Source of the DNA: Candidatus Adlerbacteria bacterium
GTDB taxonomy: Bacteria; Patescibacteriota; Minisyncoccia; Phycocordibacterales; SBAW01
Reading direction: 5' to 3'
DNA: 64,000 nt
Assembly: GCA_028286685.1 (NCBI GenBank)
Contig: JAQBRA010000002.1
Coordinates: 1,073-65,072, forward strand
In this document: in pieces, positions 6,762 to 60,942 of the stretch
How the letters are laid out: every line of letters begins with the position of its first letter
Position numbering within the stretch: position 1 is the first letter of the stretch
Notes under the pieces: model-generated
The model's input: the letters and a program-made list of their open reading frames with translations, nothing else
Told to the model about the DNA's origin: nothing
Database searches by the model: none
Made by a program: the position numbers and the translations under genes

Positions 6762-6833
6762 GGCCACGTAGCCAAGTAGAAAGGCGCGGGACTGCAAATC
6801 CTGTATGCGCGGGTGCGATTCCCGCCGTGGCCT
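6762..6833 (+). tRNA. tRNA-Cys(GCA)
   Basis: Cloverleaf with acceptor GGCCACG/CGTGGCC, anticodon loop CTGCAAA, and T-arm GGGTGCGATTCCC. Confidence 0.8.
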
Positions 6834-7008
6834 CAAGGAGAGTATTCGACGCTGGGGCCACGGAGAGAAGCATGGGATGCTTCTCGTCGGGAATCGCAAG
6901 CCGGAGCGGGCCCCATGCCTCTTGGCATGGGAGCGAGGCAGGGCCGTGCGGCACATGATCCAGTGGTATCATGTGAACGCCTGGCCGATCCGCCGTGGCC
7001 TCAAGTTT
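6834..7008 (+). repeat. tRNA-linked structured repeat element, copy 1 (ends with a 16-nt duplicate of the tRNA-Cys 3' end)
   Basis: Conserved core aagccggagc...gcgaggcagggccgtgcggc...gaacgcctgg plus two hairpins that covary against copies 2 and 3. The terminal ccgccgtggcctcaag repeats 6823-6838. Confidence 0.6.
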
Positions 7009-7012
7009 ATTT

Positions 7013-7096
7013 GCCGGGGTGATGGAATGGTAGACATAGGGGACTTAAAATCCCCAGAGCTAATATCTCGTGTGGGTTCGAGTCCCACCCCCGGCA
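7013..7096 (+). tRNA. tRNA-Leu(TAA)
   Basis: Acceptor GCCGGGG/CCCCGGC, anticodon loop CTTAAAA, long variable arm, and T-arm GTGGGTTCGAGTCCCAC. Confidence 0.85.
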
Positions 7097-7101
7097 CCGG
7101 T

Positions 7102-7980
7102 ATGGATTTTTTATACGGAAAGCTAGAGCAAGCACCTGAGGGTTTTTGTCCACCTGAGATGTGGCCTGAGTACGCGATCGTGTCCCAGCCTACCTGGCCC
7201 TGCACAAGCGAAGGTGTAGGCAAGGACCCCAGCGGCGTACGCTGGGGTCTATGGCCCTTTACCTTTGAAGACTACATAAGCGACAAAGAACCAAACCTGC
7301 AGGAGTCGCGCAAAGGCACACTGGCCCGCAATCGCGTTATTACGTGGGAGCGCGTGCGCAAAACCAACATACCCCGGGGATGGATGCAGTTTAGCAGAGC
7401 ACCCTCGCGCATAGATGGCGTTTTATCCCTAGATCAAGATCAGGATTATACCCTTTCATGGAATAAGAATGCCCGCCGCGATTTGCGAATTTTTAAAGAC
7501 AAAGTGGCAAGCGGGCTCTATGCAGTAGTGCCGATTTCAATGGATGCGTTTGCAGGTGCTTACCGACAAAGCCTGATAGCCCAACGTGTTGATCTCCGCC
7601 GCCTCGAGGATCTTGAGCGCAAGTTTGCACATCCAGCCGCGCAAGGACATATAAAATTATGGGGTGTTCGTAACACTCAAACTGATGCCATAGTAGCGGG
7701 CACTGCTATTAATTATTCTCCTACCTATAAAAACTCGACTCATATTGCGCCCTTTATACTTGAGGAAGGGCGCCACCTCTGCGCCGCAACGGGGCTTATT
7801 GACCATTGGTTTGCAGAATCCATAAAACACGGCTGCACTTTTGCAACCACGCTCAACTTTTGGTTTAAGGGCCAGCCCAAAGAGTGGCGCGGGTTTTCTG
7901 AATTCAAATCGCACTTTGGGTTTCAGTTTGTGGCCTATCCACCTCGGCTCTATAAGTTCGTTTTAGGGAAGATTTTTTAA
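7102..7980 (+). CDS. FemAB-like / GNAT-fold (Acetyltransf_6-type) acyltransferase family protein; low-GC, likely acquired
   Basis: C-terminal GFSEFKSHFGFQFVAYP matches the FemAB/BioF2-like G-x-x-FK-x-x-FG motif. GC is visibly lower than its surroundings. The ORF-track start at 6805 would run across two tRNAs, so the ATG at 7102 was used. Confidence 0.4.
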   Translation: MDFLYGKLEQAPEGFCPPEMWPEYAIVSQPTWPCTSEGVGKDPSGVRWGLWPFTFEDYISDKEPNLQESRKGTLARNRVITWERVRKTNIPRGWMQFSRAPSRIDGVLSLDQDQDYTLSWNKNARRDLRIFKDKVASGLYAVVPISMDAFAGAYRQSLIAQRVDLRRLEDLERKFAHPAAQGHIKLWGVRNTQTDAIVAGTAINYSPTYKNSTHIAPFILEEGRHLCAATGLIDHWFAESIKHGCTFATTLNFWFKGQPKEWRGFSEFKSHFGFQFVAYPPRLYKFVLGKIF

Positions 7981-7989
7981 ATTTTTAGT

Positions 7990-8133
7990 ATTTCGCACTA
8001 GTGGTCAGGCGTTCAACATGCGCCGTCGCACACATTGCCGCACGACCCTGCCTCGCCGTCCTGCAAGCGTAGGACATGGCTCCGGCTCGCACACAAGCAG
8101 AAAGCCTCCCGCAGGGGAGGCTTTCTGCTTGTG
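7990..8133 (-). repeat. tRNA-linked structured repeat element, copy 3 (downstream of tRNA-Lys)
   Basis: On the minus strand: a long hairpin with a GCAG loop (8092-8133), then the conserved gagccggag...cgaggcagggtcgtgcggc...gaacgcctga core. The terminal repeat of the tRNA-Lys 3' end is degenerate. Confidence 0.55.
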
Positions 8134-8206
8134 TGCGCCTACCTGGATTCGAACCAGGGACAATCTCCTTAAGAGGGAGCTGCTCTACCAACTGAGCTAT
8201 AGGCGC
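8134..8206 (-). tRNA. tRNA-Lys(CTT)
   Basis: The reverse complement reads GCGCCTATAGCTCAGTTGGTAGAGC...anticodon loop CTCTTAA...GTCCCTGGTTCGAATCCAGGTAGGCGCA. Confidence 0.8.
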
Positions 8207-50880: not shown

Positions 50881-50888
50881 GTTCTAGC

Positions 50889-50931
50889 CATAAAGTAAAA
50901 GACCTGCCGCAGGGCAGGTCTTTTACTTTAT
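50889..50931 (+). terminator. bidirectional hairpin terminator (19-bp stem, GCAG loop) between hsp20 and tRNA-Phe
   Basis: ataaagtaaaagacctgcc-gcag-ggcaggtcttttactttat. Confidence 0.65.
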
Positions 50932-50933
50932 GG

Positions 50934-53712: not shown

Positions 53713-53788
53713 ACTGTGCGGAATAGAAGCTGGGACTTATATTCCTTCCCTCGCTCGCAAATAATAGCGGGCTTTATTTGTCTCACTC

Positions 53789-53961
53789 GGGTGCGGAATG
53801 GGAATCGGTCAGGCGTTCGTATAATGCCGTCGCATTATACGCCGCACGACCCTGCCTCGCTCCCGTGCCCGCTGGCACGGGGCCCGCTCCGGCTTTCGAT
53901 TCTCCACACAACCCGCCCCGCGGGTCGTTCATTCCGCACTCTTGTCACTATAGTTCCTCGG
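53789..53961 (-). repeat. tRNA-linked structured repeat element, copy 2 (ends with a 20-nt duplicate of the tRNA-Gly 3' end)
   Basis: In tRNA orientation: hairpin, then gaatcgaaagccggagc, covarying hairpin 1 (cgtgccagcgggcacg), gcgaggcagggtcgtgcggc, covarying hairpin 2 (gtataatgcgacggcattatac), gaacgcctga, and ccgattcccattccgcacc, which repeats the tRNA 3' end. Confidence 0.6.
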
Positions 53962-54032
53962 TGCGGAATGGGAGAATCGAACTCCCGCCCGTTGCTTGGG
54001 AAGCAACTGTTCTACCACTAAACCAATTCCGC
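53962..54032 (-). tRNA. tRNA-Gly(CCC)
   Basis: The reverse complement reads GCGGAATTGGTTTAGTGGTAGAAC...anticodon stem-loop GTTGC-TTCCCAA-GCAAC...GGGAGTTCGATTCTCCCATTCCGCA. Confidence 0.8.
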
Positions 54033-60649: not shown

Positions 60650-60942
60650 ATTTAGCGCGCGCGTCTGTAAGCCGAGTTCTGTCGTGGGCTGCAATTTATC
60701 TGGGCCCAGAGTCGCCCCTGGGCTCGAGCGGCACTCCGCAGTTGCCTGCGGCACGGCCTTGCACCCGGGTAGGGATTTTGCCGTTTCACCCGAACTAAAT
60801 CGGTTCGTCACTGTTCGCACCCCTTACGACCGCTAATATCGTACGGCAGGCGTTACCTGCTACCTTGCTACTGCAGTTGCCCGCAGTGGGAGCTCGGACT
60901 TTCCTCTCCGTCTTGCGACAGAGCTGCAACCAAACGCGCTTT
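60650..60942 (-). ncRNA. rnpB: RNase P RNA (bacterial type A, compact)
   Basis: The minus-strand transcript contains AGGAAAGUCCGAGCUCC (P4 5' strand), GGUAACGCCUGCC, GGGUGAAACGGC and ACAGAACUCGGCUUA (P4 3' strand). P1 pairs GCGCGUUUG with CAGACGCGC, and a hairpin follows. Confidence 0.75.

Follow-up and report, generated by a model that had tools for sequence, protein, structure and literature searches.

Structured elements adjoining tRNA genes in CPR bacteria, with an arm antisense to the tRNA 3′ end and a duplicate of it

Three elements behind tRNA genes

The window, by which we mean the whole stretch of 64,000 nucleotides analysed here, belongs to a Candidatus Adlerbacteria MAG and harbors three copies of a short structured element, all present as the original prediction had it: each lies directly 3′ of a tRNA gene (Cys, Lys or Gly) and on the same strand, and 3 of the 11 tRNAs of the window carry one. 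A 20-nt stretch of the core, GCGAGGCAGGGYCGTGCGGC, is exact in the three copies, at 6933-6952 (+), 8037-8056 (-) and 53841-53860 (-), where 0.01 matches are expected. In what follows, X is the 3′ segment of the tRNA gene, X′ an arm located 5′ of the core and complementary to the 3′ end of the cognate tRNA, and X′′ the downstream duplicate of that end (Table 1).

Table 1. Features of the three elements and of their surroundings in the window
Feature	Position	Strand	Basis
tRNA-Cys(GCA)	6762..6834	+	ARAGORN, Rfam
Segment X of tRNA-Cys, first direct-repeat copy, including 4 trailer nt	6822-6837	+	exact 16-mer search
Copy 1, arm X′a GGGGCCACGG; complements the acceptor 3′ strand in tRNA-Cys and in the downstream duplicate	6854..6863	+	sequence, folds
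Copy 1, variable hairpin P2	6864..6885	+	fold; homologous P2 in other type B copies
Copy 1, arm X′b GTCGGGAATCG; complements the T-loop/T-stem 3′ strand in tRNA-Cys	6886..6896	+	
Copy 1, stem-loop I, GCC-G-GA-GC ... GC-GA-GGC, with tandem G.A/A.G and variable hairpin 1	6900..6939	+	RNAalifold, pair counts
Copy 1, stem-loop II, GGYCG/UGRCC with invariant G.U, GCG/CGC and variable hairpin 2	6942..6986	+	
Copy 1, X′′, downstream duplicate of the tRNA-Cys 3′ end	6986..7005	+	
Copy 2, short X′′ (CAC..), then GTGCGA	7993..8003	-	comparison with tandem arrays
Copy 2, stem-loop II, with three G.U pairs in hairpin 2	8003..8047	-	
Copy 2, stem-loop I	8050..8086	-	
Copy 2 (type A), helix H1, palindromic hairpin with CUGC loop	8088..8137	-	folds, loop specificity, tRNA/X′ covariation
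tRNA-Lys(CUU)	8133..8206	-	ARAGORN, Rfam
Solo module: palindromic hairpin with CUGC loop directly 3′ of tRNA-Phe, CCA:UGG base, no core	50888..50933	-	
Segment S (53725-53789) and third partial tRNA-Gly end (53714-53724)	53714..53789	-	
Copy 3, X′′, duplicate of the tRNA-Gly 3′ end, CGATT--CCCATTCCGCACC	53790..53807	-	
Copy 3, three-way-junction core	53807..53893	-	stem-loop I 53854-53893, stem-loop II 53807-53851
Copy 3 (type B), X′b GTGGAGAATCG, P2 and X′a GTGCGGAATG	53897-53907, 53908-53929, 53930-53939	-	
tRNA-Gly(CCC)	53960..54032	-	ARAGORN, Rfam; segment X 53960-53979

The 16-nt direct repeat announced for copy 1, CCGCCGTGGCCTCAAG, is exact, with its two occurrences at 6822-6837 and 6990-7005 rather than at 6823-6838 and up to 7008. 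It forms the end of an X′′ that starts at a C matching C56 of the T-loop and bears a 2-nt deletion. The helix closing the core has X′b of this copy as its 5′ strand. A terminal duplicate had been credited to copy 1; the Gly copy ends in one as well, and the segment S beyond it, together with the third partial tRNA-Gly end, probably represents an earlier insertion that has decayed and was displaced outward by copy 3. The idea of one common architecture has to be abandoned for the Lys copy, which presents a 23-bp palindromic hairpin that includes the last nucleotides of the tRNA, and a short CAC.. repeat. At the base of this helix (H1), the last nucleotides of tRNA-Lys and the trailer (CGCACA) are paired with X′ (UGUGCG), and the GTGCGA located past its X′′ looks like the first part of another unit, cut short.

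The covariation of both hairpins is readily seen on the three copies, once the sequences quoted for copies 2 and 3, which had been interchanged, are returned to their places: the Gly copy has cgtgcc/ggcacg and gtataatg/cattatac, the Lys copy gtcct/aggac and aatgtgtg/cgcatgtt, the latter with G.U pairs. The conserved core was correctly recognized, though its two ambiguous positions (Y and R) are the partners of one covarying pair, C-G in copy 1 and U-A in copies 2 and 3. Three further points, the X′ arm antisense to the tRNA end, the existence of two architectures and the empty tRNA-Gly sites of syntenic relatives, had been overlooked.

A family conserved among CPR bacteria

By exact-pattern scans followed by a covariance model, 175 copies were assembled, the model matching 73 times in loci from genomes and 102 times in loci from metagenomes. 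Covariation is kept across these homologues, and the notion of a family of homologous, structured repeats linked to the 3′ ends of tRNAs is borne out. The elements measure about 100-190 nt and contain no conserved ORF. They start less than 130 nt past the 3′ end of a same-strand tRNA in 53/73 genome and 76/102 metagenome copies (129/175 in total), and the neighboring tRNAs span more than 25 isoacceptors. Copies are found on both DNA strands within one GC-skew domain, the strand always being that of the tRNA. Some copies have no upstream tRNA. Downstream genes are unrelated or lie on the opposite strand; in four cases the next same-strand tRNA begins 4-32 nt past the element, and these operon-embedded copies suggest that the core is transcribed. 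The true genome copies all belong to CPR/Patescibacteria MAGs, and the sequence of the junction is very strongly conserved from Saccharibacteria through Paceibacterota.

The consensus of the core, as derived from RNAalifold and pair counts, is an unknotted three-way junction with stem-loops I and II. Paired cells amount to 96.5% in the 73 genome copies and 96.4% in the 102 metagenome copies, while shuffles reach about 75% and slid controls 28-41%; double changes occur at 28/33 and 29/33 pairs, respectively. The nucleotides that hardly vary number about 35, and a single G.U pair is kept unchanged in 69/70 sequences. The hairpins vary in length around conserved apical and junction nucleotides, two sequence subfamilies differ in nucleotides of the junction, and the variable helix P1 closes this conserved junction, one of its strands having an alternative partner. 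A mutual-information scan for pseudoknots and loop-loop contacts gave no signal beyond the helices and the subfamily signatures.

The original prediction had taken the G-U wobbles of one hairpin as fitting transcription in the tRNA direction, and the folding models agree: in the tRNA-sense orientation the fold gains 7.0 kcal/mol over that of the antisense strand, the sense being favored by 66/67 cores, and G.U outnumbers A.C by 38:12 outside P1. A functional antisense strand is rejected on both the fold energies and this asymmetry. The type A hairpin alone displays no strand asymmetry.

On the basis of our comparisons, the element matches no RNA or mobile-element family found, in line with the earlier failure to assign it to a known ncRNA. 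With Rfam 15, tRNAs and RNase P alone passed the gathering threshold in the window, and tRNAs alone were retrieved in 13 more element loci. At E<=10, no model overlaps the core, including HDV-like, hammerhead, twister, hatchet and pistol ribozymes, group I/II introns and riboswitches; weak miRNA-type matches fall on the long hairpin and are meaningless. An exact 19-mer of the core had 0 matches in 2.9 million viral contigs; 78 viral loci retrieved by a gapped pattern include no match of the covariance model, and the 19-mer matches outside CPR (Streptomyces, Pseudomonas and others) miss the flanking motifs, both sets being thus attributable to chance. Full-text literature searches, with the core sequence among the queries, returned no description of the element. 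Furthermore, other candidates (HDV-like threading, box C/D, K-turn, TnpB/IscB guide RNA, and a resemblance to the 5′ GUGYG and domain V of group II introns) were dismissed, each for want of a defining feature, and a PBS-like primer site was discarded as well, X′ being complementary to the genomic trailer and not to CCA.

The closest relatives of a copy are mostly copies at the same tRNA in other genomes (0.87-0.91 identity). The best pair at different tRNAs of one genome reaches 0.93 identity, and the sole identical pair is a tandem duplicate. The copies of one genome not being nearly identical, the family has seen no burst in recent times; judging from these identities, it is old and largely vertical in descent. 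Copies at the same tRNA persist across families with the structure-preserving drift that is typical of functional RNA.

An antisense arm, a fixed boundary and the turnover of copies

In X′ two nucleotides are specific to the tRNA; they are complementary to tRNA positions 71-70 at 52/54 and 72/74 positions, where permutation predicts 35 and 56.5 (p<1e-4), and 8 dinucleotide types are represented. The arm occurs in two settings. In type A, which comprises most copies, a palindromic hairpin is accompanied by a repeat of 5-9 nt, so that the 16-nt duplicate foreseen from copy 1 does not extend to the majority of the family. The CUGC- and UUGA-loop hairpins occur almost exclusively ahead of the core (25 vs 2), and the view that they are the ordinary terminators of the genome is rejected accordingly. 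In type B, the repeat measures 8-26 nt and starts at C56 of the T-loop, and a spacer or terminator of 20-60 nt stands between the tRNA and the element. Here X′ matches the tRNA over 10-20 nt; X′a complements the acceptor 3′ strand, the discriminator and the trailer, and does so even where X′′ does not include that part. It could be taken for a copy of the 5′ acceptor strand, left from a decayed duplicate tRNA; however, the complementarity to discriminator and trailer contradicts this, as does the X′a of locus L061, with an A opposite U71 where the tRNA has G2. In the minimum free energy folds of the full precursor, X is paired with X′, and the 5′ strand of the tRNA with X′′.

Across the family the direct repeat varies from 4 to 26 nt. 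The left boundary of X′′ is fixed (C56 of the T-loop, or C72/C74), the right one falls 1-7 nt past the tRNA, and the boundary reads CCTGAC|C, next to the conserved junction. Repeats of tRNA ends of at least 12 nt were found only at core 3′ ends. Between locus L184 and the window, X′ and X′′ have remained identical to the tRNA sequence, whereas hairpin 2 has diverged by compensatory changes. Moreover, the perfect 26-nt repeat of L001 takes in unpaired positions and trailer nucleotides; perfect repeats of this sort call for duplication at the DNA level, since selection for pairing alone would not account for them.

An exact-protein look-up for close strains yielded one short contig with RbfA and none with the FtsB-like protein, and syntenic relatives were obtained by homologue-based look-ups. 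The FtsB-tRNAGly-HxlR locus is filled in the window and in L184, and empty in L095, L096 and L093; segment S alone adjoins tRNA-Gly in L094 and L097, and is absent from L095, L096, L093 and L184. Empty-site alleles, the search for which the original prediction had suggested, do exist, so that the attL/attR-like geometry noticed at the outset reflects real gain and loss. The purely DNA-level integration scar to which it had been likened is nevertheless insufficient, because of the arm antisense to the tRNA 3′ end, and no integrase is linked to any copy, either in the 8-kb flanks searched or near those of the window. Decayed copies are represented by S, by L044 and by the arrays in L022 and L049; successive or tandem units occur at one tRNA, the older ones being distal; L084 and L063 hold 0.8-1.1 kb of cargo between the repeats; and sites of elements have been rearranged, as between the window and L066 and in the flipping of tRNA-Gly. 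Clustering of the ORFs in the 8-kb flanks of about 50 loci disclosed no recurrent protein, only scattered housekeeping genes, and Pfam found nothing mobile among the window neighbors (IF-2, RbfA, FtsB-like, HxlR and a LUD-domain protein).

A proposed switching RNA and its rivals

We tentatively propose, with a probability of roughly 0.4, that the element is a module inserting specifically at the 3′ ends of tRNAs. Its payload would be a co-transcribed RNA able to pair in turn with the tRNA end and with the downstream copy of that end, which would probably govern processing. The module is protein-less, and its structured RNA would be transcribed as the trailer of the tRNA. Each unit comprises an X′ antisense to the last 5-20 nt of the neighboring tRNA (reaching across the palindromic hairpin in type A), the conserved three-way junction, and an X′′ copying the tRNA 3′ end from a fixed C. 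X′ would pair either with the real tRNA end, forming helix H1, or with X′′, forming helix P1 and closing the junction; having two alternative partners, it would therefore make the precursor a two-state switch. H1, a long duplex running into the tRNA 3′ end, may serve as a cleavage or processing stalk, for which RNase III would be the obvious candidate enzyme, as it is retained in CPR: together with RNase J and PNPase it is among the ribonucleases kept in at least 90% of CPR genomes (PMC12641178). Folding of the junction with X′′ would strip X′ off the tRNA, and tRNA and element would be freed as separate RNAs. Spread and loss would proceed by recombination at the repeated tRNA segment, through integration and excision or through allele replacement after DNA uptake.

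Several points count against this proposal. The type A hairpin, with a GC stem and a U-tract, resembles an intrinsic terminator and could halt most transcripts before the core; the proposal gives no reason why the displacement of X′ alone should take so strongly conserved a junction; decayed copies and cargo variants resemble selfish DNA more closely than an indispensable device for processing; and only some tRNAs per genome carry the element. The proposal also leaves the matching of X′ to a new tRNA unaccounted for. It is conceivable, although we hold it unlikely, that X′ is a true guide and the junction the scaffold of a target-matched system, guided by RNA or by a folded strand, that homes into or acts on tRNA 3′ ends across CPR. 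This could take the form of a programmable tRNA-targeting mobile element without an enzyme of its own, or of an RNA switch acting in cis to gate the maturation of individual tRNAs.

A purely DNA-level miniature integrative element, of which the X-hairpin-X′-core would be the excised and possibly single-stranded form, is improbable in our estimation, if by no means negligible. X:X′ would then rebuild the duplex 3′ end of the tRNA gene, as folded integron attC does, the junction beside the crossover (..CCTGAC|C) would bind a recombinase encoded elsewhere, and integration into the cognate tRNA would leave the repeat. The fixed left and variable right boundaries of this repeat, its restriction to core 3′ ends when 12 nt or longer, the empty and filled alleles, the stacking of older units distally, the cargo of L084 and L063, and the rearrangements all fit this scheme; partial tRNA genes, known as footprints of integrative elements, are the usual mark of integration (PMC9897764), and the bias of G.T over A.C with compensatory changes would also be expected of folded single-stranded DNA. 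Yet it encounters the want of any integrase, transposase or recurrent protein in the 8-kb flanks of some 50 loci and around the three copies of the window, of near-identical copies at different tRNAs of one genome, and of a single occurrence in the viral contigs. The presence of copies on both strands of one replichore is contrary to a dependence on single-stranded DNA of the lagging strand, duplex recombination would have to act on a very small circle, of 100-190 bp, and the persistence of same-tRNA copies across families looks like that of a functional RNA. A somewhat more doubtful option is a free-standing small RNA acting in trans (for instance the RNA part of an RNP), which would use tRNA promoters and processing, the repeats and X′ being by-products of the birth of copies. 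The junction conserved over such distant lineages, the multi-copy nature of the family with some members within tRNA operons, the variable hairpins with constant apical and junction nucleotides, typical of protein-binding RNAs, and the copies devoid of an upstream tRNA are in its favor, but it does not explain why X′ tracks the neighboring tRNA (over 8 dinucleotide types, and over 10-20 nt in type B) or why X′ and X′′ keep the tRNA sequence while other helices drift by compensatory change, and frequent decayed copies are not what it predicts.

More remote are two readings in which the junction itself is active. A new self-cleaving ribozyme maturing the tRNA 3′ end, with X′ as its substrate-binding arm, would be analogous to HDV-like theta ribozymes, which lie downstream of phage tRNAs and for which a role in tRNA 3′ processing has been proposed (PMC10879173). 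Besides this precedent, the location immediately 3′ of tRNAs, the near-invariant nucleotides and G.U pair in a small junction, the guide-like arm pairing across the boundary between tRNA and trailer, and the reduced RNase set of CPR would suit it. Even so, we consider it very improbable: no Rfam ribozyme matches even at E<=10, neither pseudoknots nor other tertiary contacts show up as covariation, and the fold is unlike that of HDV-like ribozymes, a nested double pseudoknot with cleavage at the 5′ end of the ribozyme itself; a type A copy would have to be cut within a continuous perfect helix, in type B the spacer or terminator intervenes, and a minority of tRNAs carry the element. The layout of a classical aptamer, with a variable P1 whose strand has an alternative partner, a conserved junction and hairpins of variable length, would in turn accommodate a riboswitch-like sensor, in which a ligand-stabilized P1 (X′:X′′) frees the tRNA 3′ end and gates the maturation of a subset of tRNAs. 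Its chances are slighter still, considering that it would sit 3′ of its presumed target, which is unprecedented, that the gene context gives no clue to a ligand, that the two subfamilies differ at junction nucleotides, and that decayed copies are common.

The CPR/Patescibacteria represent a large share of bacterial diversity, with tiny genomes and little non-coding DNA; many of their tRNA genes bear this conserved appendage of 100-190 nt, which reads the 3′ end of its own tRNA. An RNA device would point to an unknown layer of tRNA processing or control in CPR. A mobile element would be a minimal one, which by its target-matching arm and duplicated target would differ from MITEs, introns and integrase islands, and could reveal a new recombination route. 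If X′ is a guide, in either form, the mechanism would be without described precedent. In any case, the covariance model, the 175 examples and the defined empty and filled alleles constitute a resource.

Relation to known systems

Several known systems share part of these traits. Integrative elements of tRNA genes also display direct repeats of the 3′ segment on both sides, an intact tRNA, empty and filled alleles, accretion at one tRNA, and a left repeat boundary at the T-loop or the acceptor end; Williams is said to have described, in 2002, T-loop and 3′-end sublocations for the att sites of tyrosine integrases in tRNA genes. They are, however, kilobases long, while the CPR element measures 100-190 nt with no integrase in it or near it, and has a strand-specific three-way junction, a tRNA-antisense arm and more than 25 tRNAs for one sequence family. 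Theta ribozymes are alike as small structured RNAs immediately 3′ of tRNA genes, but belong to phages; the CPR element resides in chromosomes, has neither an Rfam HDV/theta match nor the double pseudoknot, and holds both a duplicate of the tRNA end and an arm antisense to that end.

Integron attC sites and IS200/IS605-type ends (PATEs), at which recombination enzymes recognize a folded single strand, resemble it in stems whose structure is more conserved than their sequence, in strand-specific folding, conserved mismatches, and non-coding units that may occur in tandem. An attC site is a single imperfect hairpin with R′′/L′′-L′/R′ boxes, adjoining gene cassettes and an IntI integrase; the CPR element is branched, without R/L boxes and without a GTTRRRY box at the boundary, without IntI or TnpA nearby and, as a rule, without ORF cassettes, and its insertion duplicates 5-26 nt of the target. 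MITEs such as Correia/NEMIS of Neisseria are similarly short, non-coding, multi-copy and, as far as gene order tells, co-transcribed with their neighbors, with long transcript hairpins that RNase III could cut. Nevertheless, the inverted arms X′/X′′ copy the local tRNA instead of being terminal inverted repeats constant in the family, the duplication varies in length, near-identical copies and a cognate transposase are lacking, and the core is RNA-like and strongly conserved. Riboswitches sit in the 5′ leaders of functionally related genes, whereas the CPR element lies 3′ of tRNAs. The RNase III stalks of rRNA operons, finally, share the long duplex of flanking sequences that reaches the mature end of a stable RNA; the CPR duplex differs in that it joins the 3′ end of the tRNA to the 5′ end of a second RNA, with the competitor strand X′′ built in.

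Structure and distribution of the tRNA-linked element

Three homologous copies of the element occur in the window, each just 3′ of a same-strand tRNA gene (Cys, Lys and Gly, among the 11 detected by ARAGORN), as the original prediction had proposed. They share an exact 20-nt core, GCGAGGCAGGGYCGTGCGGC, against 0.01 occurrences expected, and about 100 nt can be aligned among them; differences within their two hairpins compensate each other, and each has a much more stable fold than shuffled sequence (z = -4.8, -9.6 and -5.4). The 16-nt direct repeat described for the Cys copy is indeed exact. The prediction had located all copies, with positions 1-3 nt off, but it had interchanged the hairpin sequences of the Lys and Gly copies, and overlooked both the Gly copy's own duplicate of the tRNA end and the different build of the Lys copy.

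An exact 19-mer scan over 185,579 species genomes yielded 91 loci, and those also carrying the flanking motifs all belong to CPR/Patescibacteria MAGs (Saccharibacteria, Paceibacterota, Adler-, Nomura- and Kaiserbacteria, Minisyncoccia); the other matches, where these motifs are absent, were discarded as chance. A covariance model (A2, R1) trained on 47 copies recovered 73 copies in the genome loci and, in the window, only the three known ones. The same 19-mer led to 97 metagenome contigs with 102 model matches, and viral contigs gave zero copies. In agreement with the prediction, Rfam 15 yields no match, whether the cutoff is its gathering threshold or E<=10. The window itself belongs to a Candidatus Adlerbacteria MAG, as a protein identical at 100% indicates, and lies on a contig of 196 kb.

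The consensus fold is a three-way junction of three helices: the closing helix P1, stem-loop I (GCC-G-GA-GC...GC-GA-GGC plus a variable hairpin) and stem-loop II (GGUCG/UGACC, then a 1x1 loop, GCG/CGC and a variable hairpin whose GCGACGGC tip is conserved). In the genome set 96.5% of cells are paired, compared with 74.9% in shuffles and 31-39% for slid partners, with double changes in 28 of 33 pairs; the independent metagenome set gives 96.4% and 29 of 33, and the covariation claimed from three copies is thus retained among the homologues. A search for pseudoknot signal in the family found none. It is the tRNA-sense strand that folds: G.U exceeds A.C by 38:12, one G.U pair is unvaried in 69 of 70 sequences, and 66 of 67 cores fold better in the sense strand, by 7.0 kcal/mol.

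Furthermore, divergent copies form a second core sequence subfamily (GGCGCAGC ... GCGAGCCGGGGUCGCGAG ... CUUGUGACC), often at tRNA-Arg(UCU), Val, Lys or Leu, in which compensatory changes keep the fold even within the "invariant" core.

Coordinates of the element and associated features (L-numbers denote other genome or metagenome loci)
Feature	Locus	Position	Strand	Remark
Core, Cys copy	window	6933-6952	+	
Core, Lys copy	window	8037-8056	-	
Core, Gly copy	window	53841-53860	-	
16-nt repeat, Cys copy	window	6822-6837, 6990-7005		
Interval between Cys and Lys elements	window	7013-7980		tRNA-Leu(UAA) and ORF
ORF	window	7102-7980		292 aa, no Pfam match
Solo palindromic hairpin	window	50888-50933	-	directly 3′ of tRNA-Phe; element-specific CUGC loop
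RNase P RNA, class A	window	60652-60942	-	
Segment S	window	53714-53789	-	
Segment S	L094	411-489		
Segment S	L097	2894-2997		
Cys and Lys elements	L066	7640-7770		tail to tail, ~10 nt apart
Second subfamily	L022	3205-3301, 6312-6538		
Second subfamily	L066	7648-7744		
Second subfamily	L069			
Second subfamily	L007	6758-6853		
Second subfamily	L063	3123-3219		
Tandem array	L022	3000-3500		2-4 units behind one tRNA
Tandem array	L049	3269-3459		2-4 units behind one tRNA
Tandem array	L209	6938-7165		2-4 units behind one tRNA
Tandem array	L213	2503-2880		2-4 units behind one tRNA
Tandem array	L019			
Cargo variant	L084	2600-3600	-	
Cargo variant	L063	3783-5080	+	
No ARAGORN tRNA upstream	L008	1589-1704, 3708-3824		
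No ARAGORN tRNA upstream	L002			
No ARAGORN tRNA upstream	L029			

Two architectures and an arm complementary to the tRNA

The distance from the end of a same-strand tRNA to the start of the match is below 130 nt in 53 of 73 genome and 76 of 102 metagenome cases; most of the others are second units within tandem arrays or contig-edge copies. More than 25 isoacceptors carry the element. About two thirds of the copies, including the Lys copy of the window, are of type A: the tRNA is followed by a terminator-like palindromic hairpin whose loop is CUGC or UUGA (loops near-exclusive to this position, 25 versus 2 elsewhere), GUG plus two nucleotides (the antisense arm X′), the core, and a short repeat, 5-9 nt long, of the tRNA end and the beginning of the trailer. 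In type B, to which the Cys and Gly copies of the window belong, the order is tRNA, spacer or terminator, X′a, hairpin P2, X′b, core and X″, the last being a repeat of 8-26 nt whose first nucleotide is always the C equivalent to T-loop C56 and which ends 1-7 nt beyond the tRNA.

Through its two variable nucleotides the type A arm complements nucleotides 71-70 of the cognate tRNA: the match holds at 52 of 54 positions in a first set (35 by permutation) and at 72 of 74 in a second (56.5 by permutation), across eight dinucleotide types. In type B, X′a and X′b together are complementary to the final 18-20 nt of the tRNA, discriminator and trailer included, and an origin of X′a as a copy of the tRNA 5′ strand was therefore rejected; in L061, X′a has A opposite U71, the tRNA itself having G2. 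In several type B copies X″ holds only the T-loop/T-stem part, and X′a nonetheless matches the real tRNA. The arm thus has two possible partners, the tRNA end (helix H1) or X″ (helix P1), and whole-precursor thermodynamic folds choose the swapped pairing. Comparison of the window's Gly copy with its L184 orthologue shows compensatory drift in hairpin 2, an identical X′a and a single difference in X′b; X″ still reproduces the tRNA-Gly end, exactly in L184 and with a 2-nt deletion in the window. This pattern points to a constraint that would bind both arms to the tRNA.

Several variants accompany these architectures. Tandem arrays mix intact and diverged units, and that of L022 holds a duplicated pair with 100% identity. 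The solo hairpin of the window, at whose base UGG pairs with the encoded CCA, lacks the three-way-junction core; L006 has this tRNA and hairpin too, with a core behind them. An encoded CCA is missing from most tRNA genes of the window but present in tRNA-Phe and tRNA-Ser(CGA), and tRNAs linked to type A have discriminator A followed by C in every case. Where a clear tRNA-like X″ has no ARAGORN tRNA upstream, the tRNA may contain an intron and hence escape standard tools, a situation reported in Patescibacteria (PMC13011429).

Gain, loss and age

Syntenic FtsB-tRNAGly-HxlR loci were compared across relatives, and the empty-site alleles that the original prediction had suggested looking for do exist, beside filled ones. 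In L095 and L096 (68% FtsB identity) the native flank directly follows the tRNA, and the site is also empty in L093 (89%), with the tRNA oppositely oriented; L094 and L097 (68%) carry S, a segment of 71 nt with a flanking 9-nt repeat of the tRNA end; L184 is cleanly filled, with a perfect 20-nt repeat; and the window has element, X″, S and a third partial repeat. These empty, S-only, filled and combined states imply at least two insertions at this tRNA-Gly, where the distal material would be the older. L094 and L097 have S (65-71 nt: a hairpin, GTGCG, then AGCGAGG...) by itself, and in the window it is found distal to the intact copy; S probably represents an older element that has decayed. 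The tRNA-Gly(CCC) of L093, L094 and L097 is opposed in orientation to that of the window, L095, L096 and L184, despite synteny and even in L093, the closest relative.

A copy is mostly closest to copies at the same tRNA in other genomes (0.87-0.91 identity), no identical copies at different tRNAs were found in the family, and the related locus L066 retains both Cys and Lys copies with compensatory drift; the family is therefore old and has mostly been inherited along with its tRNA, gains and losses being only occasional. The tRNA-Leu(UAA) that separates the two elements in the window lies elsewhere in L066, and the ends of the elements resemble a hot spot of rearrangement. Two loci carry a cargo of 0.8-1.1 kb between the tRNA and X′-core-X″: ~790 nt with one small secreted-looking ORF in L084, whose tRNA-Ser-end repeat is perfect over 19 nt, and ~1.1 kb with two small ORFs in L063.

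Possible roles and known systems

The data fit a module with two sides: it would be inserted at tRNA 3′ ends and would also form an RNA structure, on the sense strand, within the tRNA transcript. In four copies the next same-strand tRNA begins only 4-32 nt downstream, and promoter space is therefore absent. We tentatively favour a processing switch (probability about 0.4), in which H1 would form a long duplex running into the tRNA end, junction folding with X″ would set the tRNA free, and recombination at the repeated segment would spread the module; RNase III, RNase J and PNPase are retained by CPR (PMC12641178).

As an alternative, a DNA-level integrative mini-element whose att site is folded seems unlikely. 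A trans-acting small RNA, a mere rider on tRNA operons, is somewhat less likely again; we consider a new ribozyme improbable, and a riboswitch-like sensor slightly more so. The element is like tRNA-targeting integrative elements in its repeats and its empty and filled alleles, and no recurrently linked protein appears among its neighbourhoods. It does not qualify as an integrase island, a MITE, an attC site or an HDV-like theta ribozyme (PMC10879173), nor as a member of any Rfam family. Full-text searching of the literature gave no description of it; we regard it as real, and of a kind previously undescribed.

The RNase P RNA of the window is a reduced CPR-type molecule of only 291 nt with several shortened helices, scoring 104.8 bits, just over the gathering score of 100.
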